Shown: positions 15,745 through 36,989 of the stretch, one piece after another
How the letters are laid out: the number at the start of each line of letters is the position of its first letter
How positions within the stretch are numbered: position 1 is the stretch's first letter
From: Gammaproteobacteria bacterium
Lineage (GTDB): Bacteria > Pseudomonadota > Gammaproteobacteria > Eutrophobiales > Eutrophobiaceae
Direction: 5' to 3'
NCBI GenBank assembly: GCA_021773215.1
Contig: JAJFKM010000012.1
Location: forward strand, 4,922 to 68,921
Length of the DNA stretch: 64,000 nt
Program-made: the position numbers and the translations under genes
Notes under the pieces: generated by a model
The model's input: the letters and a program-made list of their open reading frames with translations, nothing else
Databases searched by the model: none
What the model was told of the DNA's origin: nothing

Positions 15745-16494
15745 ATGTTAAATATCCAAAACTTACATGCAAAAATAGGTAACAAAGAAATACTCAAAGG
15801 TTTAAACCTGAGTGTTAATGCCGGTGAAGTACATGCCATCATGGGACCGAATGGTTCTGGTAAAAGCACATTAGCCAATGTCCTTGCGGGCAGAAATGGT
15901 TATGACGTCACCAAAGGCACAGTTGAGTATGAAGGCAATAATTTACTCGAACTTGCGCCAGAAGAACGCGCCTGGGCTGGCGTGTTTCTCGCCTTTCAAT
16001 ACCCGGTAGAAATACCTGGTGTTAATAACGTTTATTTATTAAAAGCGGCAGTTAATGCGGTACGTAAATATCGTGGCGAACCTGAATTAGATGCTGTCGA
16101 ATTTCTAGGGCTGATCAAAGAAAAGATGAAGATCGTCAAGATGAAAGAAGACCTGCTCAATCGATCTGTTAATGAAGGTTTTTCAGGCGGCGAGAAGAAA
16201 CGTAACGAGATATTTCAAATGTCAGTACTTGAACCAAAGCTTGCCATTCTCGATGAAACGGATTCTGGTCTTGATATCGATGCATTAAAAATTGTCTCTG
16301 AAGGCGTGAATAGTTTACGTAACGAAGAACGCTCAATTATTTTAGTCACGCATTACCAACGCCTGTTGGATTACATTAAACCTGATCACGTACATGTACT
16401 AAGCAATGGCAAGATTATTAAGTCTGGCGGGCCTGATCTAGCATTAGAGCTTGAAGAAAAAGGTTATGACTGGATTAAGGAAGAAGCTGCGTGA
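15745..16494 (+). CDS. sufC: Fe-S cluster assembly ATPase SufC
   Basis: Walker [13 protein letters not shown] signature FSGGEKKR and Walker [13 protein letters not shown]. Length 249 aa. Confidence 0.9.
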
Positions 16495-27439: not shown

Positions 27440-28837
27440 ATGAAACCAGTTATCGCTATCGTTGGTCGACCCAACGTCGGCAAGTCTACCTTTTTCAATC
27501 GTCTGACATCCACTCGTGATGCCCTCGTAGCCGATCGACCGGGTGTAACCCGTGATCGTCAATACGGCGTAGCACAACATGCTTCACGCTCATTCCTGAT
27601 CATTGATACGGGTGGTATTGGCGAAGAAGATCATGACAGCGAAGAAGTCGCTGATCTGATGACCGAACAGTCGATGCTGGCAGCAAGTGAGGCTTCGGTA
27701 TTGGTCTGGCTGGTCGATGGTCGCGATGGATTAACCGCTGTAGATGAGATTCTATCTGCTGAATTTCGAAAGCTGGATAAACCGATATTTTTAGCCGTCA
27801 ATAAAATTGAAGGCTATGAAAGCGAAGTAGCCATCAGCGACTTCTACCGTCTTGGTATAGATTCAGTATGGCCGATCTCATCCAAACGTGGCGACGGAAT
27901 AGCAAACTTACTCGATGCTGTATCAGATATTATTCCTGATACAACTGAAGATGAAGATGAAGAATTAGAAGGCATCGCAGTTTCAGTTTTAGGTCGTCCT
28001 AATGTGGGCAAGTCTACTTTAGTAAATCGAATGCTCGGTGAAGAACGTGTACTTACCTTTGACCATCCCGGCACAACACGCGACAGTATAAAGATACCGT
28101 TCGAGAAGAATGGAAAGGATTATATCTTAATCGATACCGCGGGTGTACGTAGAAAAAGCAAAGTGCATGACATGGTTGAAAAATTCAGCATCTTAAAATC
28201 ATTCGAAGCAATTGATGCCGCTAATATCATTGTTTTAGTCATCGATGCCAGTGAAGGCGTTACTGATCAAGACACTACTCTATTAGGCATGATAGAAGAC
28301 AGTGGTAAATCTCTCATTATCGTAGTGAATAAATGGGATGGCATGGAAACCTCGGACAAAGAGCGTGTAAAGGATTTACTATCACGCAAATTCAGCTTTA
28401 TCGATTACGCACAATATCACTTCACATCAGCATTACACGGTACTGGTGTCGGCAATATATTTAAAACCATAAACAAGATCGAAAAATCGCTGGACATCAA
28501 TGTCTCGACATCCGACATGACCGACATACTCGAAGATGCCGTCGCAAAACACCCACCGCACATGGTACAGGGAAGAAGAATCAAACTACGCTACGCTCAC
28601 CTAGGGGGCACCGACCCCATCCGCGTGATAATACACGGTAATCAAACCGACAAAGTCCCCGATGCCTACAAACGCTATCTAGCCAGTGTATTTCGTAAAC
28701 GATTAAAATTAGTAGGAACGAATGTATTAGTCGACTTCAAACACGGCGACAATCCATTCAAAGGCAAAAAGAATGTACTAACGCCAAGACAAGTTAGTAA
28801 ACGAAGACGTTTAATGAAGTTTGTAAAAAAGCGTTAA
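27440..28837 (+). CDS. der: Ribosome biogenesis GTPase Der (EngA), tandem GTPase domains
   Basis: Two G-domains with GRPNVGKST P-loops at residues 9 and ~185, followed by a KH-like C-terminus. Confidence 0.9.
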   Translation: MKPVIAIVGRPNVGKSTFFNRLTSTRDALVADRPGVTRDRQYGVAQHASRSFLIIDTGGIGEEDHDSEEVADLMTEQSMLAASEASVLVWLVDGRDGLTAVDEILSAEFRKLDKPIFLAVNKIEGYESEVAISDFYRLGIDSVWPISSKRGDGIANLLDAVSDIIPDTTEDEDEELEGIAVSVLGRPNVGKSTLVNRMLGEERVLTFDHPGTTRDSIKIPFEKNGKDYILIDTAGVRRKSKVHDMVEKFSILKSFEAIDAANIIVLVIDASEGVTDQDTTLLGMIEDSGKSLIIVVNKWDGMETSDKERVKDLLSRKFSFIDYAQYHFTSALHGTGVGNIFKTINKIEKSLDINVSTSDMTDILEDAVAKHPPHMVQGRRIKLRYAHLGGTDPIRVIIHGNQTDKVPDAYKRYLASVFRKRLKLVGTNVLVDFKHGDNPFKGKKNVLTPRQVSKRRRLMKFVKKR

Positions 28838-28913
28838 CTCAAAATTTTCTTAAATCAATAATCCTTTTAACTGATGTATCGATCGATACTGATCATTTAC
28901 ATTCTCTTTTGAT

Positions 28914-29792
28914 TTAATATTTTTTTGGTACAAACGTCTGTGTATGCATCGCCGAGCGTTTATAGCCTTTTTCTTCCTTCAGTGGCGGAATTTTCGGAAC
29001 TTTAGGTTTTAAATCCTTATACGGAATCAGATCCAATAGGTGTGATATACAATTCAGCCGTGCACGTTTCTTATCATCTGAAGGAACAACATACCAAGGA
29101 GCTTGTGGAATATCTGTATTGAAAAACATTTCATCTTTACACTTGGAGTAATCCATCCATCTCGATCTGGATTCCATATCCATGGGACTGAGTTTCCATA
29201 ATTTGTGCCGCTCCAAAGCACGTCCCTGAAAGCGCCTTTCCTGCTCTACATTACTAACCGAAAACCAATACTTAATAAGGATAATTCCTGACCGCACCAA
29301 CGAGCATTCGAATTCAGGGCAAAAACGCAAAAACTCCTTATACTCCTCCTCTGTACAAAAACCCATTACCCTTTCTACTCCGGCACGGTTATACCAACTC
29401 CTGTCAAACAGAACGATCTCACCTGCAGCAGGAAGATGCGCGATATAGCGCTGAAAGTACCACTGCGTTTTTTCACGTTCAGTGGGTGCGGGTAACGCGA
29501 CGATATTACAGATCCGGGGACTCATGTGTTCAATAATGCGTTTGATTACTCCACCTTTACCAGCGGCATCGCGACCCTCAAATACCACCGCCACTTTAAG
29601 CCCCTTCTTCGTTACCCACTCTTGCAACTTAACTAGTTCTACCTGAAGCCGAAATATTTCTTCTTCATAAAATTTTTTCGATAGCTTCTCTTCTTTTTCC
29701 CCTCTCAGCCTTGGATCATCTTCATGATATGCATCCACTATTGCTGTTACCTTCTGCTTGGTAGTTTTTTTCTTAGCCATAATTTTTCCCAT
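28914..29792 (-). CDS. Polyphosphate kinase 2 family protein (single-domain PPK2)
   Basis: Walker A EGRDAAGKGG, the FDRSWY motif and a lid region. Length 292 aa. Confidence 0.8.
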   Translation of the reverse strand: MGKIMAKKKTTKQKVTAIVDAYHEDDPRLRGEKEEKLSKKFYEEEIFRLQVELVKLQEWVTKKGLKVAVVFEGRDAAGKGGVIKRIIEHMSPRICNIVALPAPTEREKTQWYFQRYIAHLPAAGEIVLFDRSWYNRAGVERVMGFCTEEEYKEFLRFCPEFECSLVRSGIILIKYWFSVSNVEQERRFQGRALERHKLWKLSPMDMESRSRWMDYSKCKDEMFFNTDIPQAPWYVVPSDDKKRARLNCISHLLDLIPYKDLKPKVPKIPPLKEEKGYKRSAMHTQTFVPKKY

Positions 29793-30313
29793 TTAATTTG
29801 TGGTTTAGTTTCCAACTGCACTACTTATAAAATACTGGGACAACTATTGTTGTGATTACGTTGCATTGTTCCATCAAACCACCCTACTGTGCATTTGACC
29901 TCTCAGTTTAAGCATAGACGATCATTTCTTTATAGTATTGATCTAGATCAGATCAACACGGAAAATTAAATTAAAGAGAAATCAAAAAAGGCCGGTGTAT
30001 TTCGTAAATGATCAATGAAGATTGCAAAGAAAAAGTTAGTCTGGATTTGTTAATGCCATCAGGCAAGAACAAACCCAGTCTATGATTTAAGTAACTTTAA
30101 TGTACAGTTTAAAATCCACCACTAAATGCCTTTATCGTATCAACTAATCGTTCAGGTATTGAATACTAACAAACTTAAAGCACAAGAATCCTATAGATAA
30201 TCACCAAAAACCCACTTATACTGAAATCGTTTTTTGAAATGATTACAGGGAACATGTCCATCAGACATCCACTCCCTGCCGAAATATCAACCTAACATGG
30301 TATAAGGATATTT

Positions 30314-30871
30314 ATGAAAAACGAACATCTTAATCGTAGAGAATTTCTCTGCAACAGCGGCAAAACCCTTGCTGGTGTTGTCGTTGCGTCATCCGGCGCT
30401 GTCACTCTTATCTTCCCTGCTACTGGCTGGTCTGCTCAACTTGCAGTGCTAAACGAGCATGAAAGCAAGACCTTGCTTCGTATGACCCGGGAGATGTTTC
30501 CGCATGACAAGATCGAAGATAAGTTTTATGCCGTTGTCGTAACAGCCTTGGATACCGATGCCAGTGGAAATGCGGATACAGCAAAACAACTTAAAGCTGG
30601 CGTTGCTAATCTCGACAAGCTCGCACAAGGAGACTGGCAGGCACTGTCAGCCGACAAGCGTGGGGCTGTACTGAAGCAAATCGAAACCACTGCTTTTTTT
30701 AATAGCGTTAAATCCAAATGCGTTACGGGCATATATAACAACAAAGACCTATGGGATCACTTCGGTTACGAAGGTTCTTCTTCAGAACACGGTGGTTATA
30801 TTAATCGCGGTTTTGATGATCTGGATTGGTTACCTAATCCACCTGAATCCGATAGCCCAAAAGCGCATTAA
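30314..30871 (+). CDS. Tat-exported small subunit of a two-component GMC dehydrogenase (gluconate 2-dehydrogenase subunit 3 family)
   Basis: Twin-arginine signal NRREFLCNSGKTLAGVVVASS. It lies immediately upstream of the GMC flavoprotein; the pairing is typical of membrane-associated sugar/polyol dehydrogenases. Confidence 0.65.
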   Translation: MKNEHLNRREFLCNSGKTLAGVVVASSGAVTLIFPATGWSAQLAVLNEHESKTLLRMTREMFPHDKIEDKFYAVVVTALDTDASGNADTAKQLKAGVANLDKLAQGDWQALSADKRGAVLKQIETTAFFNSVKSKCVTGIYNNKDLWDHFGYEGSSSEHGGYINRGFDDLDWLPNPPESDSPKAH

Positions 30872-30889
30872 CATTTAAGGAGAGACGTC

Positions 30890-32458
30890 TTGGCCAAGAT
30901 CGATTTTTACGATAACTCTGCCGTAGTCATTATTGGATCTGGTGCCGGTGGGGGTACTTTGGCAAACGAACTTTGCCAAAAAGGCATTAAAGTAGTCTTA
31001 TTAGAAGCAGGTAAGCACCATACCATTGCCGACTTTGTTAATGACGAATGGCCTTCCTTTAGTCAATTGGCCTGGTTAGACAAACGTACTACCTCTGGTG
31101 ATTGGCGTGTTGCAAAAGATTTTCCGAACCTGCCAGCATGGATCTGCAAAACTGTCGGCGGCACTACGACACATTGGGCGGGTGCCAGTCTTCGAATTCA
31201 GGATCATGAATTCAGAGCAGAAACACATTATGGAAAAATAGATGACGCTAATCTTATAGATTGGCCACTTACTCTGAAAGATCTTGAACCTTACTATGCC
31301 AAGGCTGAAGACAAGATGGGCGTGACACGTACGAATGGCATTCCCGGTCTACCCGGCAACAATAATTTTAAGGTCATGCACGCCGGTGCGAAAAAGCTCG
31401 GTTATAAAGAAGTGCATACGGGACGCATGGCAATCAACAGTCGTCCACGAAACGGTCGTGCGGCATGTCAACAGATTGGTTTTTGTTTTCAAGGTTGTAA
31501 GTCAGGGGCAAAATGGTCAACCTTGTATACTGAGATTCCTGCAGCTGAAGCTACCGGTAATCTAGAACTACGATCCGAATCACATGTATTACAAGTAAAA
31601 CATGATGCAGAAGGTAAAGTCAGCGGTGTGTTGTACGCTGATAAAGATGGCAATCAACATTTGCAAAAAGCGCGTATCATTTGCGTCGCAGGTAACTCAA
31701 TTGAATCTCCGCGTTTATTATTAAATTCAGCTACCTCTATGTATCCAGATGGCCTGGCAAATTCTTCTGGTCAAGTTGGTAGAAACTATATGCGCCATAC
31801 AACGGGTTCAGTCTACGCAACGTTTGAAAAACCTGTACACATGTATCGTGGTACCACTATGGCTGGGATCATTGCTGATGAAAATAAACATGATACAAGC
31901 AGAGGCTTTGCTGGTGGTTATGAAATGGAGACCTTATCACTCGGCCTACCGTTCATGGCTGCGTTTCTAGACCCCGGTGCTTCCGGTAAAAAGTTTAGTG
32001 ATGCATTAGAAGATTATGACCACATGGCGGGCATGTGGATTGTTGGTGAAGATATGCCGCAAGAAAAAAATCGCGTTACATTACATGCAACAGAAAAAGA
32101 TCAGCACGGACAACCCGTACCTAATGTTCATTTCGATGATCACAAAAATGATATTGCGATGCGTAATCATGCTTATAAACAAGGCACTTTGGTATACGGT
32201 GCAGCCGGTGCAAAGACAGTTTGGGAAACACCACCTTACCCATCAACGCATAATTTAGGTACCAACCGTATGAGTACGAAAGCGACTGATGGTGTCTGTA
32301 ATGGCTTTGGTCAAACTCACGATATTAAAAACTTGTTTATTTCGGATGGCAGTCAATTCACTACTGGTGCGGCAGAAAACCCTACACTAACAATCGTGAC
32401 ACTAGCTATTCGACAAGCAGATTATATTGCTGAACAGATGGGTAAAAAGAATATTTAA
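30890..32458 (+). CDS. GMC family FAD-dependent oxidoreductase (dehydrogenase flavoprotein subunit)
   Basis: Rossmann FAD motif IIGSGAGGG near the N-terminus, a GMC C-terminal domain and the conserved active-site His/Asn region (HNLGTNRM). Length 522 aa. Confidence 0.85.
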   Translation: MAKIDFYDNSAVVIIGSGAGGGTLANELCQKGIKVVLLEAGKHHTIADFVNDEWPSFSQLAWLDKRTTSGDWRVAKDFPNLPAWICKTVGGTTTHWAGASLRIQDHEFRAETHYGKIDDANLIDWPLTLKDLEPYYAKAEDKMGVTRTNGIPGLPGNNNFKVMHAGAKKLGYKEVHTGRMAINSRPRNGRAACQQIGFCFQGCKSGAKWSTLYTEIPAAEATGNLELRSESHVLQVKHDAEGKVSGVLYADKDGNQHLQKARIICVAGNSIESPRLLLNSATSMYPDGLANSSGQVGRNYMRHTTGSVYATFEKPVHMYRGTTMAGIIADENKHDTSRGFAGGYEMETLSLGLPFMAAFLDPGASGKKFSDALEDYDHMAGMWIVGEDMPQEKNRVTLHATEKDQHGQPVPNVHFDDHKNDIAMRNHAYKQGTLVYGAAGAKTVWETPPYPSTHNLGTNRMSTKATDGVCNGFGQTHDIKNLFISDGSQFTTGAAENPTLTIVTLAIRQADYIAEQMGKKNI

Positions 32459-32469
32459 AAGCAGTATGA

Positions 32470-33627
32470 TTAATACTGTAACTGAACACCAAAAGTAAAC
32501 AAATCAACATCCCTACCAGCATAACCGCTGGCGTTGTTATCGCCGCTTATATAATTAAAATTTAATTTAGCGTTATTACCCGAGATAACGTAATTCGTAC
32601 CGATCTCAATAGAATCACTCGTTTTTGCATCGCTAGGATTATTTTCGACGTACCTGAAATAAGGTTGAAATTTACCCCAAGCAATTACCTTGGGGAATAA
32701 ATAAGCGACCGTAGCAAAAGTTGAATGGCCGTCAAACAGGCAGGAGCAACCGGCTAATCCTGCTGCGGGCGGTGTAGCTAGAGTAAAGTCAGAATGAAAT
32801 TTTTTATATTCTGCTTCGATAGTAAAAACGCCACCATCATCGAGAACAGTCTCTGACAAAACATCGAAGGTATAGCCAAAAAAGTCGCCTTGTTCAATTG
32901 AGCTACCCGAACCGCCAGATTGTTGTTGAAATGCGAAGGCAAGCGTTAACAGATTGCCTTGTTCGCCAAAATAACTAGAACTTGAGTAATAGACCGGATT
33001 GGATTCTATATCCAGAAAACTATAAGAAATGCGCGCACTGTAGAGTAAATGATTATCTTGATTACTCTGGCCTTTCAAACCATCAAATATTCCTAATGCA
33101 TAATGCACTCTGCCAGTCGTACCCCAAAACACACCGCCTTCACTTCGACCCAATGTGCCAGCGCTAGCGCCGTAACCAGAAGGAAAAAGCGGCTGTGTGT
33201 ATTGGTTCCAATTGAGTGAATAGAATGGACCATTTTTATCAATACGATCGGAAGGTACTAATGTACGACCGATCCAAACATTAATACTGGGGTTAAATTC
33301 AAACCTTGCTATAGCATCCATCATAAATGTCTTTTGATGATTCTGCTTATCGGTATTCACATAAAACTTCAGGTATTTATGTACCTGTGCTTCAAAATAG
33401 AATCGTATGCTATCAAATGAAAATTCATTATTATTATCGAAATCACTTTTTCTTGAATCAAGCTGCATGCGAATACCTGTGCCTGCAGTAAGCCACAGGG
33501 TATCGCTATGTTCGAATTTAACACCGGCAATGACTGGCGCAGTAAACATAAATGAAAGACTAGCGATTAATAGACATATAGTCCGACGAAAGAGATTGCC
33601 TGTACTTAATCTTTTTACGTGAATCAT
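32470..33627 (-). CDS. Putative outer-membrane beta-barrel porin (paralog 1 of a tandem pair)
   Basis: Signal peptide, alternating amphipathic beta-strand pattern, Gly/Ser/Tyr-rich loops and a C-terminus ending in aromatic residues (FGVQLQY). Family not assigned. Confidence 0.5.
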   Translation of the reverse strand: MIHVKRLSTGNLFRRTICLLIASLSFMFTAPVIAGVKFEHSDTLWLTAGTGIRMQLDSRKSDFDNNNEFSFDSIRFYFEAQVHKYLKFYVNTDKQNHQKTFMMDAIARFEFNPSINVWIGRTLVPSDRIDKNGPFYSLNWNQYTQPLFPSGYGASAGTLGRSEGGVFWGTTGRVHYALGIFDGLKGQSNQDNHLLYSARISYSFLDIESNPVYYSSSSYFGEQGNLLTLAFAFQQQSGGSGSSIEQGDFFGYTFDVLSETVLDDGGVFTIEAEYKKFHSDFTLATPPAAGLAGCSCLFDGHSTFATVAYLFPKVIAWGKFQPYFRYVENNPSDAKTSDSIEIGTNYVISGNNAKLNFNYISGDNNASGYAGRDVDLFTFGVQLQY

Positions 33628-33673
33628 TTACATGCCTTATGTTTAAGATTTAAACGTATGTATGGATTTCAAT

Positions 33674-34834
33674 TTAATACTGTACTTGAATCCCAAAAGT
33701 AACTTTATCAACATCCCTGCCAGCATAACCGCTGGCATTAGTATCACCGCTAACATAGCTCAAATTCAGTTTCGCTTTATGGCCTGAAATAACATAGTTT
33801 GAACCGACTTCAAAAGAATCACTTGATGCAGCGCCACTTGGATTATTTTCGACATAACGAAAGTAGGGTTGAAACTTACCGAAACCTATAACCTTTGGGA
33901 TTAGATAACTTACGGTAGCAAAAACTGAGTCACCATCGAACAAACAAAAACAATCTGCTATACCAGCAGCCGGTGTTGATACAGAACTAAAATCCGCATC
34001 AAAATTTTTATACTCTGCTTCAACAGTGAACACGCCTTTGCCGGGCAGTACTGTTTCGGATAACAGATCAATCGAATAACCAAAATAATCACCTTGTTCT
34101 ATAGCGCTACCACTACCGCCATCTTGATTTTGTAAGGTAAGCGCAACGGTAAATAAATCACCCTGCTCACCAAAGTAAGTAGAGCTGGTGTAATAACCGA
34201 AGTTGGATTCGACATTCAGGAAATTATAAGTGAGTCGAGCAGCATAAAGTTTATTGTTAGATTGATTACTAAAACCTTTCAGACCATCAACAATCCCCAA
34301 TGCGTAATGAAACTTGCCTGTTGTCCCCCAAAATACGCCGCCTTCACCGCGCCCCAGACTTCCCGCAGCTCCACCTAATTCAGTAGGATACAAAGGCTGA
34401 CGATATTGGATCCAATTCATACCATAAAAAGGTCCACTCATCCCGATACGGTTTCCAGGAACGACCAGGCGGCCTACCCAAAGATTAAAACTCGGATGCA
34501 ATTCAAAGCGAGCCATCGCATCAATGAGATCGGTAGAGTCATGGTTCTGCTTATCGGTATTAATACTAAACTTCAGGTATTTATGGACTTGTGCAGCGAT
34601 GTACACACGAATACTGTCGAATGACACTTCAGAATTATTATCCAAATCACTTTTTCTAGAATCCAGTTGCATACGGGCACCACCACCAATGCTTAACCAG
34701 ACAGTATCACTGTGCTCAAACTTTACGCCACTCATGACTGGCATAGTGGCTAATAAAACAGTGCTTAATATTATGAGTTTGGTGATATTACGAACGTATG
34801 TATTACGGAGGTGTTGGAATTGCACCTTAAACAT
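33674..34834 (-). CDS. Putative outer-membrane beta-barrel porin (paralog 2, roughly 60% identical to the 32470-33627 gene)
   Basis: Same architecture and colinear similarity to paralog 1 (GVKFEHSDT..., RMQLDSRKSD..., ...FGIQVQY). Confidence 0.5.
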   Translation of the reverse strand: MFKVQFQHLRNTYVRNITKLIILSTVLLATMPVMSGVKFEHSDTVWLSIGGGARMQLDSRKSDLDNNSEVSFDSIRVYIAAQVHKYLKFSINTDKQNHDSTDLIDAMARFELHPSFNLWVGRLVVPGNRIGMSGPFYGMNWIQYRQPLYPTELGGAAGSLGRGEGGVFWGTTGKFHYALGIVDGLKGFSNQSNNKLYAARLTYNFLNVESNFGYYTSSTYFGEQGDLFTVALTLQNQDGGSGSAIEQGDYFGYSIDLLSETVLPGKGVFTVEAEYKNFDADFSSVSTPAAGIADCFCLFDGDSVFATVSYLIPKVIGFGKFQPYFRYVENNPSGAASSDSFEVGSNYVISGHKAKLNLSYVSGDTNASGYAGRDVDKVTFGIQVQY

Positions 34835-35032
34835 ATGCTTACCCTTTTTATTAGTTTGCTACCCCCCACAACTTAGTAAGCAATTCGCTAATACTCTACA
34901 TCTCTTTCTTTTAGTCTCGATAGACTAAGCTTTTCCATAGACAAGACAGGCAAGCTAATTATATTTAGTCTTAGATATACAGATATTTTTAATATGTTGT
35001 TTTAAAAATATTAATGCAGATTCAAGCTACGA

Positions 35033-36094
35033 CTATATTTTATTATATTTTTCTTTTAAGGTCTCAAGAATAACGTTTGCATCTGCCCCTGTTGACCATT
35101 CACCATCTTTATTCATGATAATAACTTCTGTCTTATCGCCGACGCCGGTCAAGCTTAACTGATAAGCTGTGCCTTCATCTTCATCATCACCCCAGAATTT
35201 TAATTTAGATAAAAGTCCTTTTTCTTCTTTTTCACCTTCCGGCATAAAGTAACGGAAATCATAAGTCCCTTTTTCTTGATCGCTAGCTTCAATCACGTAC
35301 TCAGAACGTTCTAATATCATCTGTGCTTCACGCCAGGCGCGTGTGAATTCTTGCGGGATTACCAAATAACTCTTGCCATCACCAACATCAAGTATTTCTG
35401 CCTTGGGTTTTACTGGTTTAGGCTCTTCAACTGGCGCAGTTGAGGCAGTACTTTTTGAACTATTGGAGGTACTTGCTACGTTAGGTATTTCAGTTCCGTA
35501 AAAATGCAGATTCAATTTCCGAATAACTTTCTTTTCCATATCTGTATCGGCCAACGAATCAAGCCATTCACCTTCGGATAAGTCCTGCTTTTCACTCGAC
35601 ATGAATAGCATCGTGCCACCAGACTCATCAGGTTCTGTAAAAATCTTGAATCTATATCTGCTGCTGCCATCTTCTTTCCAAGCTGTTTCAAGCACACCTA
35701 ATTCTGCATCATCCAGATCAATGGCATACTCTCTTTCTCTCCAGAACTCTTTTAGTTTCGGCCATATATCAAAAGAAGAACCTCTCAAGGCTAACCATTG
35801 TTCACCGTCTGCCTCACCGGAACCTAATACCGATCCCTGCCGTTTATTTTGAGAACGCTGCCGTTCAAACTCGCTCAATGATGTCGACTCCTCTCCAGGA
35901 ATCTTTGCCGAGAACTCGCCTTCCGTCACCGTCAGGTCAGGAGGGACTTCCAGAGTGGGCAAGCCCTTGCTTTTTTGATAAGCAGTTCGCTTGTCTGGCA
36001 ACACTTTTTCCAAATCGTCAACGCCTGGAAGGTATGAACAAGCAAGAATAAAGAGAAAACTAAGTATTAAAACGAGATTACGTAAAATCATCAT
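35033..36094 (-). CDS. bamC: Outer membrane protein assembly factor BamC (NlpB lipoprotein)
   Basis: Lipobox FILAC. Located immediately downstream of dapA on the same strand, the conserved dapA-bamC operon. Confidence 0.7.
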   Translation of the reverse strand: MMILRNLVLILSFLFILACSYLPGVDDLEKVLPDKRTAYQKSKGLPTLEVPPDLTVTEGEFSAKIPGEESTSLSEFERQRSQNKRQGSVLGSGEADGEQWLALRGSSFDIWPKLKEFWREREYAIDLDDAELGVLETAWKEDGSSRYRFKIFTEPDESGGTMLFMSSEKQDLSEGEWLDSLADTDMEKKVIRKLNLHFYGTEIPNVASTSNSSKSTASTAPVEEPKPVKPKAEILDVGDGKSYLVIPQEFTRAWREAQMILERSEYVIEASDQEKGTYDFRYFMPEGEKEEKGLLSKLKFWGDDEDEGTAYQLSLTGVGDKTEVIIMNKDGEWSTGADANVILETLKEKYNKI

Positions 36095-36101
36095 TGTGTA
36101 T

Positions 36102-36989
36102 TTATATAACTCCAGCCTGTTTCATGGCATCTAGTAATTTGGGTTCCGCTGATTCAGACATCCAGGTCATTGGCAGTCTTATACCTGCTTGGATAAAGCC
36201 TAATTTGTGTAAGGCCCATTTCACGGGTATTGGATTCGATTCAATAAATAATTCTTTATGCAGACCGTTAAGCCTATTGTCAATTGCGGTTGCACCTTCA
36301 ACGTCACCACTCAATGCTAATTGACACATCTCATGCATTGCCTTGGGCGCAACATTGGCGGTAACCGAAATCACCCCATCCCCGCCTTCAAGAATAAAGT
36401 CTTTGGTAGTCTCATCGTCCCCTGTTAACAGAAGAAAATCAGCGCCCGCACCATCACGTATCTGCTTAACCCTTGTCAGGTCTGCTGTCGCTTCTTTAAC
36501 ACCGATTATATTTTTTACCGATGCTAAACGAATAATCGTTTCAGGCAACATATCACAAGCCGTTCTGCCGGGCACATTATAAAGAATTTGTTGTATATCA
36601 ACCGCCTCTGCCACAGCCTTATAGTGCAAATATAGACCTTCCTGAGTCGGCTTATTATAGTAAGGCGTGACCAATAGGCACGCATCTGCCCCAACTTCTT
36701 TGGCACATTTCGTTAATGAAATCGCTTCAATCGTTGAATTTGCACCAGTACCTGCAATTACTGGTATACGACCATTAACGATATCAACCATCTGCTTAAT
36801 CACAGCACAATGTTCTTTTTCAGTTAATGTGGCAGATTCGCCAGTTGTTCCCACAGCAACAATGGCATCAGTGCCCTGCTCAATATGGAATTCGAGCAAA
36901 TTCTTCAAGGCCTGACTATCTACTACTGTATCTGGGTGCACCCCTGCTAACATCGGAGTGACAATGGCAACCATACTTCCGGTAAACAT
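36102..36989 (-). CDS. dapA: 4-hydroxy-tetrahydrodipicolinate synthase
   Basis: [14 protein letters not shown]-terminus, the GTTGES motif and the active-site Lys region (IIGVKEA). Confidence 0.9.

Follow-up and report, generated by a model that had tools for sequence, protein, structure and literature searches.

Do five genes that sit side by side between two conserved parts of a bacterial chromosome also work together, and what does the dehydrogenase in their midst oxidise? The genes in question lie in a 64-kb stretch (64,000 nucleotides; "the window", within which all coordinates are given) of contig JAJFKM010000012.1 from a gammaproteobacterium, where a polyphosphate kinase 2 (PPK2), a two-gene GMC flavoprotein dehydrogenase (small subunit gmcB-like, large subunit gmcA-like) and a tandem pair of porins separate hisS-yfgM-bamB-der on the left from bamC-dapA-gcvR-bcp-phoH on the right. 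A preliminary description, made from the DNA letters, had seen here a self-contained module for taking up and oxidising a sugar, polyol or alcohol. All five open reading frames (ORFs) are found exactly where it placed them in the ORF listing with translations that we used for gene calls, and hidden Markov model (HMM) searches and fold modelling bear out its protein identities: a class-I-type PPK2, a small subunit with a twin-arginine (Tat) signal next to a GMC flavoprotein, and beta-barrel porins. The answer we arrive at for the block is a different one. It is best explained as three functionally independent cargoes (gmcB-gmcA, the porins and PPK2) in a spot of gene gain and loss, of which the gmc pair appears to be a new member of the acetol-dehydrogenase (AceDH/GmcAB) type and a close relative of a characterised periplasmic enzyme; to this explanation as a whole we give a probability of roughly 70%.

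The assignment of the dehydrogenase begins on a plasmid. A tblastn search of plasmids found on Methylocella tundrae megaplasmid NZ_LR536451.1 a GMC gene whose product matches the window's over 522 aa with 72% identity, 84% positives and 0 gaps, and the small subunit beside it, annotated as a 'gluconate 2-dehydrogenase subunit 3 family protein', is 35% identical to that of the window (E 3e-41). The cluster runs from four propane-monooxygenase (PrMO) genes through a sigma-54 regulator, an RHH protein, a 135-aa cytochrome c and a VOC/glyoxalase protein to the small subunit and the GMC protein, and gene by gene this order agrees with the locus-tag numbering of Methylocella silvestris BL2 (Msil_1649-1651 for PrMO, Msil_1643 for a lactoylglutathione lyase and Msil_1641 for the GMC protein; PMC7364539), so that the M. 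tundrae GMC gene corresponds to Msil_1641. Deletion of Msil_1641 makes acetol accumulate and abolishes growth on 2-propanol and acetone (PMC7364539). The enzymology comes from Methylacidiphilum fumariolicum SolV, from which AceDH has been purified as a soluble alpha-beta heterodimer of GmcA (526 aa, a GMC protein with flavin adenine dinucleotide, FAD, bound covalently to His91) and GmcB, which bears a Tat signal; it is specific for acetol (Km 2.3 uM), its product is methylglyoxal, and its electron acceptor is the soluble cytochrome c_GJ, encoded elsewhere (bioRxiv 10.64898/2026.06.11.731722).

The window pair has the same build. Pfam detects both GMC_oxred_N and GMC_oxred_C in the large subunit, whose GxGxxG already occupies residues 16-21 and so leaves no room for a signal peptide, and its TTG start is preceded by AAGGAG and lies 18 bp beyond the small-subunit ORF. 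The small subunit opens with MKNEHLNRREFL followed by a hydrophobic stretch, a twin-arginine signal with the NRREFL motif that the preliminary description had picked out. Residues H95, F200, H303, M324, T447, H454 and G493-A-A-E-N497 of the large subunit are spaced like the residues that the preprint names for SolV, a correspondence that we draw from the published residue numbers rather than from an alignment.

The iron-sulfur motif deserves a closer look. In SolV it reads CDQCGFCFQGCT (C187-D-Q-C190-G-F-C193-F-Q-G-C197-T), and a [Cu-4Fe-4S] cluster is bound there with Asp188 and the beta-subunit Met144, alpha Cys190 being a further ligand (bioRxiv 10.64898/2026.06.11.731722). The window has CQQIGFCFQGCK (C193-Q-Q-I-G-F-C199-F-Q-G-C203-K), so that SolV Asp188 becomes Gln194 and SolV Cys190 becomes Ile196, and its small subunit has methionine at residues 1, 57 and 61 only, with none in the C-terminal part. 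Since these copper ligands are missing, a [Cu-4Fe-4S] cluster is not expected and a plain Fe-S cluster is predicted instead; the three cysteines suggest a [3Fe-4S] cluster, which is what the three equivalent cysteines of the FAD-dependent glucose dehydrogenase of Burkholderia cepacia (BcGDH) bind (PMC6719666). According to the preprint the copper motif is also absent from the Methylocella AceDH (bioRxiv 10.64898/2026.06.11.731722), and the motif therefore defines a verrucomicrobial subtype and not the family. Indeed, the three-Cys form is the rule among relatives of the window protein. The large subunit has thousands of homologues, the best 120 of which are 77-94% identical, all about 522 aa long and drawn in part from Alphaproteobacteria, and a metagenome scan added 80 further GMC loci (73-97% identity) from marine, lake and soil samples; the motif is present in 120/120 and 78/80 of these respectively (198/200), and none of the 198 has the copper ligands. 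Exact-sequence look-ups of the window GMC protein and of P0208 returned no match.

Put together, gmcB-gmcA would encode a soluble periplasmic alpha-beta flavo-iron-sulfur dehydrogenase of the AceDH/GmcAB type. The signal-less large subunit would fold with FAD, probably covalently attached to His95, and with an Fe-S cluster on Cys193, Cys199 and Cys203, and the Tat signal of the small subunit would then carry it across the membrane. In the periplasm the enzyme would most likely oxidise acetol (hydroxyacetone) to methylglyoxal, with electrons passing from FAD to the surface Fe-S cluster and on to a small soluble c-type cytochrome encoded elsewhere, which would be why the operon has no cytochrome subunit. 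The preliminary description had been struck by the missing cytochrome c neighbour; the absence is real, but it is not an anomaly, being the normal architecture of the GmcAB/acetol-dehydrogenase subfamily with its soluble cytochrome c (bioRxiv 10.64898/2026.06.11.731722). The sugar or polyol substrate that it favoured gives way to acetol as the likelier one.

Does the company that such enzymes keep in other genomes agree? We clustered the ten nearest ORFs of 82 loci whose GMC proteins are 73-97% identical to that of the window and annotated the cluster representatives. In 75 of the 82 the small subunit immediately precedes the GMC gene, and this pair is the only thing that stays constant across unrelated contexts; with 1604 cluster representatives at 50% identity in the small-subunit family, the two-gene architecture is common. 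Enriched nearby are a GloA-like glyoxalase (PF00903) on the same strand (31/82), an RHH_4 protein (18/82) and a small monohaem cytochrome c (10/82), the same families as in the M. tundrae cluster. The glyoxalase and cytochrome c neighbours fit a conversion of acetol to methylglyoxal with a cytochrome c acceptor and thus lend it indirect support. An opposite-strand ORF cluster (c2) with no Pfam match was treated as shadow ORFs of GC-rich loci and set aside. As a recurring cassette, RHH_4, small cytochrome c, VOC/glyoxalase, small subunit and GMC appear on the M. tundrae plasmid (L179:9969-13569) and at 18-31 of the 82 metagenome loci.

The DJ-1/PfpI family includes glutathione-independent glyoxalases. 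In L011/L012, from the window's closest clade, a DJ-1/PfpI protein, a zinc-dependent alcohol dehydrogenase (Zn-ADH) and a LysR regulator lie in the variable segment immediately upstream of gmcBA, and the first two would fit methylglyoxal handling.

A different reading takes the pair for an incomplete or unusual three-subunit sugar or polyol dehydrogenase (gluconate 2-dehydrogenase, fructose dehydrogenase (FDH), sorbitol dehydrogenase or FAD-glucose dehydrogenase) whose cytochrome c subunit was lost or has its gene at another place. Among solved structures the nearest are indeed the catalytic subunits of FDH and BcGDH (E ~1e-45, ~157-160 bits, with an alignment accuracy of 0.79 over the best stretch), and alignment to FDH 8k6k_A puts C193, C199 and C203 on FDH cysteine positions, the second Cys of the 'CC' pair being Gln. 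The small subunit, for its part, matches Gluconate_2-dh3 (PF13618) weakly, at 17.2 bits against a gathering score of 23.4, some of its homologues carry PF13618, and the top hit of its model in the PDB, although not significant, is the FDH small subunit. The likeness of the large subunit to those enzymes, however, falls well short of its 72% identity to the acetol-pathway enzyme of Methylocella. In addition, the cysteine motif is of the GFCFQGC type and not CCGNNNCMPIC, in the window protein Gln replaces the cysteine through which the BcGDH subunits are disulfide-linked, and the only cytochromes that recur among the 82 loci are the small monohaem ones; no multihaem cytochrome subunit recurs there, and none is found in the syntenic relatives or the window. 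A three-subunit enzyme is therefore, to our minds, very unlikely, and we keep to an acetol dehydrogenase.

The small-subunit family has some variety of its own. Its C-terminus is conserved (FGYEGSS..GGYINRGFDDLDWLP), and some homologues (P0317, P0325, P0336, P0341, P0354, P0356 and P0359, including Pseudonocardia and Marmoricola labels) have no twin-arginine signal but begin just ahead of the core and carry a long C-terminal tail in its place; they may represent forms of the enzyme that stay in the cytoplasm or are targeted in another way.

Is the block accessory, as had been supposed, and does it travel as one? To see this, the Der protein was scanned against one genome per species, the window proteins were mapped by tblastn onto the 80 loci returned, and further loci were added through porin and GMC homologues (L-numbers are locus labels; the clade consists of uncultured marine Gammaproteobacteria, with deposits named, for example, "Thiotrichaceae bacterium UBA973/UBA7357/UBA7359"). 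The block does interrupt an otherwise conserved junction, and five relatives in the group with Der 52-78% identical are without it: der adjoins bamC-dapA directly in L024, L028 and L030, and in L022 and L025 the two are 1.0-1.3 kb apart with none of the five genes between them, L025 (Der 73%) having a Na+/H+ exchanger gene of about 390 aa at this spot (L025:11394-12569). At Der 87-88% the order is der, small subunit, GMC, one porin, bamC in L017 and der, two small ORFs, small subunit, GMC, two porins, bamC in L020, PPK2 being absent from both. L016 (Der 86%) has nothing between der and bamC but a porin in three ORF fragments (L016:11540-12728), with neither gmc pair nor PPK2; this porin looks like a decaying gene, but it could be an assembly error of a metagenome-assembled genome (MAG). 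PPK2 is additionally present at Der of at least 94% (L014, L015, L026 and L006-L012), and beside der it is confined to this closest clade, which includes L011 and L012.

What varies among the relatives, then, is the presence of PPK2, the state of the porin (single, double or decayed) and a set of 0-8 extra genes between PPK2 and the small-subunit gene. The core of small subunit, GMC and porin is kept in all relatives with Der at least 87% identical; L016 is the exception. Because the parts have independent distributions, the block is not one self-contained module. The accessory label holds in the sense that the block is lineage-specific and variable in composition; it does not hold in the sense of strain variability of the whole, which is stable in the closest relatives. 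A recent mobile-element insertion we reject, since we find neither a tRNA or integrase nor repeats on either side of the block, which does not differ in GC content from the flanking DNA. The der|bamC junction is an old, ameliorated, lineage-specific spot of gene gain and not a recent island. In one assembly (L010/L090; contig_18447, MAG B_MB66) nearly every gene is split, including GMC, der, bamB and dapA, most likely through frameshift errors of long-read assembly rather than pseudogenisation. The features of the block and its flanks are collected in Table 1.

Table 1. Genes and intergenic features between der and bamC, with the flanking genes (positions within the window)
Feature	Position	Strand	Remarks
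der (EngA GTPase)	27440..28837	+	Left backbone flank; MMR_HSR1 x2 and KH_dom-like; anchor for the synteny scan
PPK2, single-domain, 292 aa	28914..29792	-	PF03976, 345 bits; TIGR03707, 368 bits
PPK2-proximal conserved intergenic stretch (PPK2 promoter side)	29793..30011	.	blastn identity 72-88% to L015, L090, L014 and L026
Non-conserved junction in the gap	30012..30188	.	Extra genes of relatives are located here
Promoter-like TAGATA-17 nt-TATACT	30194..30222	+	Upstream of the small-subunit gene; consensus scan
Putative 5' untranslated region, ~90 nt, sequence-conserved	30223..30313	+	Alignment of upstream regions
gmcB-like small subunit, 185 aa, twin-arginine signal (Tat 'hitchhiker' carrier)	30314..30871	+	NRREFL, then hydrophobic region
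gmcA-like GMC flavoprotein, 522 aa, TTG start	30890..32458	+	Predicted acetol-dehydrogenase-type catalytic subunit; 3-Cys Fe-S motif
Porin p1 (GMC-proximal), 385 aa	32470..33627	-	16-strand barrel of the OprO/P superfamily, from model
Porin p2 (bamC-proximal), 386 aa, tandem paralogue	33674..34834	-	65% identical to p1
bamC	35033..36094	-	Right backbone flank; PF06804, 63 bits
dapA	36102..36989	-	Follows bamC

For the porins, an AlphaFold model built from an alignment of 41 homologues (predicted local distance difference test score, pLDDT, 80; predicted template-modelling score, pTM, 0.78) consists of a signal helix and some 16 strands, with a short helix inside a long internal loop (L3) that folds inward, and Foldseek against the PDB ranks OprP 2o4v first (E 5.9e-12, template-modelling score 0.64), then OprO 4rjw and then OmpF-type porins, so the barrel that had been predicted for the pair is there in the model. 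Sequence families are less obliging: neither window porin has any Pfam match even at E 10, Porin_O_P (PF07396) included, and the NCBIfam ExtI porin model (NF040900) scores them at 74 and 64 bits, below its cut-off of 150. A Spongiibacter homologue, 53% identical, does pass Porin_O_P (23.3 vs 20.9), and membership of the OprO/P superfamily thus comes to the window porins only by transitivity and fold. Homologues 48-56% identical occur in marine Cellvibrionales-type genera (Spongiibacter, Microbulbifer, Pseudomaricurvus and Porticoccus). In three of four distant contexts (Spongiibacter, Microbulbifer and CP088953; homologues 49-53% identical) the porin is the first gene of a porin-urtA-urtB-urtC-urtD-urtE operon, with ureD/gamma/beta or ureE/F/G near these operons (L173-L175, L178). 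FmdC, the short-chain-amide and urea porin of Methylophilus (Mills et al. 1997, cited in PMC5877670), is reported to be the nearest characterised relative of ExtI (PMC5877670), a relation that fits the urea context of the homologues. Neither urt nor ure genes occur in the window. The tandem porins would probably admit small polar solutes, and they would not be dedicated to the dehydrogenase.

Could porins and dehydrogenase nevertheless work as one unit, with FmdC-like porins, specialised for small uncharged polar molecules, admitting acetol or similar oxygenated volatiles at the nanomolar levels of sea water and GmcBA oxidising them in the periplasm? Wherever a relative has the GMC pair, small subunit, GMC and porin are adjacent and the convergent gap measures 9-25 bp, the sole relative without GMC (L016) has a decayed porin only, and the porin family is linked to urea, which is similar to acetol in size and polarity. 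The genes are, however, convergent (the porins are co-oriented with dapA-bamC and p1 lies 11 bp from gmcA), and this means that the porins are not co-transcribed with the dehydrogenase. Moreover, 79 of the 82 GMC loci have no porin, the three that do all belong to the window's own lineage, and a GMC gene is found in none of the four distant porin contexts. One gain and one loss could suffice to produce the co-occurrence within the clade, and molecules of 74 Da pass general porins in any case. What speaks for dedicated porins is thus adjacency within one clade only; we consider such a unit unlikely, and the self-contained uptake-and-oxidation module of the preliminary description, which would also have to accommodate the lack of PPK2 in L017/L020 and the porin pseudogene of L016, has to be given up in favour of independent cargoes.

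Some observations on the porin genes stand apart from this. The stop codons of gmcA and p1 face each other 9-25 bp apart (window 32459-32469; L012, L014, L017 and L020), and no terminators are predicted at this junction, where there is no room for separate ones. Orthologues of p2 in relatives form a coherent set (81-90% identity). For p1 there are two types of allele, about 70% apart: the window, L006 and L020 have type A, L012 and L014 type B, which does not follow the relatedness seen with der, bamC and the small subunit. L015, with only one porin, joins an N-terminus like that of p2 to a C-terminus like that of a type-B p1, the outcome one would expect if the tandem copies had recombined unequally. 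The M. tundrae propane cluster also begins with an annotated porin, but this proved unrelated to the window porins (E 2.2), and the parallel was dropped.

PPK2 passes the NCBIfam equivalog TIGR03707 (PPK2_P_aer) over its full length, at 368 bits against a cut-off of 301.8, matches Pfam PF03976 over residues 36-261 (345 bits) and has a Walker A-like GRDAAGKGG in its translation; as a single-domain PPK2 it would regenerate nucleoside triphosphates from polyphosphate. Might it share a phosphate theme with the porins, these being OprP/OprO-type channels for phosphate or pyrophosphate that work with PPK2 in polyphosphate metabolism? OprP and OprO are the best structural matches, some porin homologues pass or touch Porin_O_P, and PPK2 sits in the same block between the backbone genes. 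On the other side, the window porins themselves have no Porin_O_P match, porins occur without PPK2 in L017 and L020, the gmc pair separates PPK2 from the porins and the two belong to different transcription units, the homologues sit in urea-transport and not pst/pho operons, and the related ExtI was judged not to be phosphate-selective (PMC5877670). We regard a joint role in phosphate metabolism as highly improbable, and PPK2 as a cargo in its own right.

The DNA between PPK2 and the small-subunit gene had been described as an unusually long, AT-rich leader of 520 bp that might hold a regulatory RNA or an operator. It measures 521 bp (29793-30313), more than any other gap between genes in the window (483 and 454 bp come next), but its GC content of 0.338 is only mildly unusual beside 0.362 for all intergenic DNA. 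By blastn against relatives two stretches are conserved, one of about 220 bp beside PPK2 (to ~30011) and one of about 125 bp in front of the small-subunit gene (30189-30313), and the roughly 180 bp between them, which are not, fall exactly where relatives carry extra genes: a Na+/H+ exchanger and a 40-aa ORF in L006-L010, L014 and L026 (the exchanger at L006:13516-14697 and L014:12703-13869), and eight genes in L011/L012 (13530-19860; GNAT, MOSC, DJ-1/PfpI, Zn-ADH, LysR, a hypothetical protein, an alpha/beta hydrolase and a small ORF). The junction has a weak 74% similarity to an intergenic piece of L012, and tblastn finds no exchanger remnant in the gap, so that a simple deletion scar is not demonstrable. 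Upstream of the small-subunit gene the TAGATA-17 nt-TATACT hexamers are invariant in 8/8 aligned regions, including that of L001 in another genomic context, and sequence further upstream is fully divergent among the eight loci, which leaves a real leader of about 90 nt. A conserved RNA structure in this 5' untranslated region (UTR) we reject: its minimum free energy of -22.3 kcal/mol (z = -2.85 against shuffles, for the single sequence) is insufficient alone, there is no covariation, the RNAalifold consensus reaches only -2.2 kcal/mol with pair counts no better than shuffles, and an Rfam scan of 28000-36000 gave no match. From its layout, then, the gap is read as a divergent promoter region with an indel junction; the exceptional length noted in the earlier description survives, and its long leader with regulatory RNA does not.

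Hexamers and leader also accompany the gmc pair into an unrelated context (67% identity, L001-L003; L001:7576-7785), which suggests that the pair takes its own control region along when it moves.

What weighs against our overall reading? The link from the window to SolV (WP_009059725.1) and to Msil_1641 runs through M. tundrae synteny and the residue numbers of the preprint. The window offers no pathway context: its 64 kb contain no gene for a glyoxalase, an acetone-oxidising enzyme or a c-type cytochrome, no ORF anywhere in it has a CxxCH motif, and searching it with Urt, Ure, GloA, RHH and small cytochrome c gives only generic ABC-ATPase matches at 15745-16494. The small-subunit model finds no significant PDB match and weakly resembles the FDH small subunit (E 0.71, probability 0.80). 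Porin selectivity rests on gene context, and in the fourth distant context (L176) the porin stands alone among housekeeping genes. Finally, the GMC-porin junction is very tight and kept in every relative that has both genes, and this could reflect more than shared ancestry.

What would it all mean? An apparent anomaly is removed, in that a GMC dehydrogenase with a "missing" cytochrome is assigned to a type that was characterised biochemically only in 2026, and the copper-free three-Cys form would be its common version, highly conserved in marine, freshwater and soil bacteria, uncultured marine Gammaproteobacteria included. The interest of this is modest and lies in the spread and conservation of a three-Cys AceDH-like enzyme outside methanotrophs, which makes it a testable candidate for the turnover of hydroxyacetone and acetone-derived carbon in sea water. 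For annotation, it means that such pairs should not be named gluconate or sorbitol dehydrogenases, and that a family of porins which so far goes unannotated, and which repeatedly heads urea-transporter operons, is flagged. One can go further and imagine an oligotrophic marine clade that has paired porins of a urea and short-chain-amide family with a periplasmic acetol dehydrogenase, a route from outer membrane to cytochrome c that would harvest electrons from trace oxygenated volatiles (hydroxyacetone from acetone or isoprene oxidation, for example) without importing them. We think this distinctly unlikely; were the pairing true, the high conservation of the three-Cys GmcA (73-80% across classes, in marine, lake and soil samples) would mark a widespread and overlooked sink for such compounds.

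How does the block compare with known systems? The PPK2 is a single-domain enzyme of the TIGR03707 'PPK2_P_aer' kind without notable difference, its der-side position being specific to the clade. With the FmdC and urt-linked porins, OprP/OprO and ExtI, the window porins have in common a length of about 385 aa, a Sec signal, an aromatic C-terminus and a 16-strand barrel with an L3 constriction; unlike the FmdC and urt-linked ones they have no urt or ure genes about them, score below every curated cut-off and form a tandem pair beside bamC. The three-subunit complexes (BcGDH, 6a2u, PMC6719666; Gluconobacter FDH, 7w2j) share with the gmc pair the GMC fold, a small subunit acting as Tat hitchhiker, a histidine for FAD linkage (that of BcGDH aligns with window His95, in WHWA in FDH and THWA in the window) and three cysteines that align with the 3Fe-4S ligands, and they differ from it in having a trihaem cytochrome c subunit and the disulfide cysteine, in the loop round the cluster and in their distant identity. 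The closest known system is SolV AceDH, alongside which gmcAB has also been named in strain IT6 (PMC8630023): here we find again an adjacent Tat small subunit and a signal-less GMC protein of about 522-526 aa with no cytochrome subunit, the GFCFQGC motif near the FAD, the covalent-FAD histidine, the active-site His/Asn, His, Met and Phe and G-A-x-E-N at matching spacings, and a glyoxalase I neighbour at loci homologous to the window GMC. The copper ligands of SolV are absent from the window proteins, no cluster of pmoCAB3, glyoxalase and lactate dehydrogenase surrounds the pair, and the host is mesophilic and marine. In Methylocella (Msil_1641 and M. tundrae) the pair is embedded in a cluster of propane monooxygenase, sigma-54 regulator, RHH, cytochrome c and VOC genes, whereas the window has two genes only, between PPK2 and the porins, but both share the CxQ[IL]GFCFQGC class of three-Cys motif and the gene order of small before large subunit.

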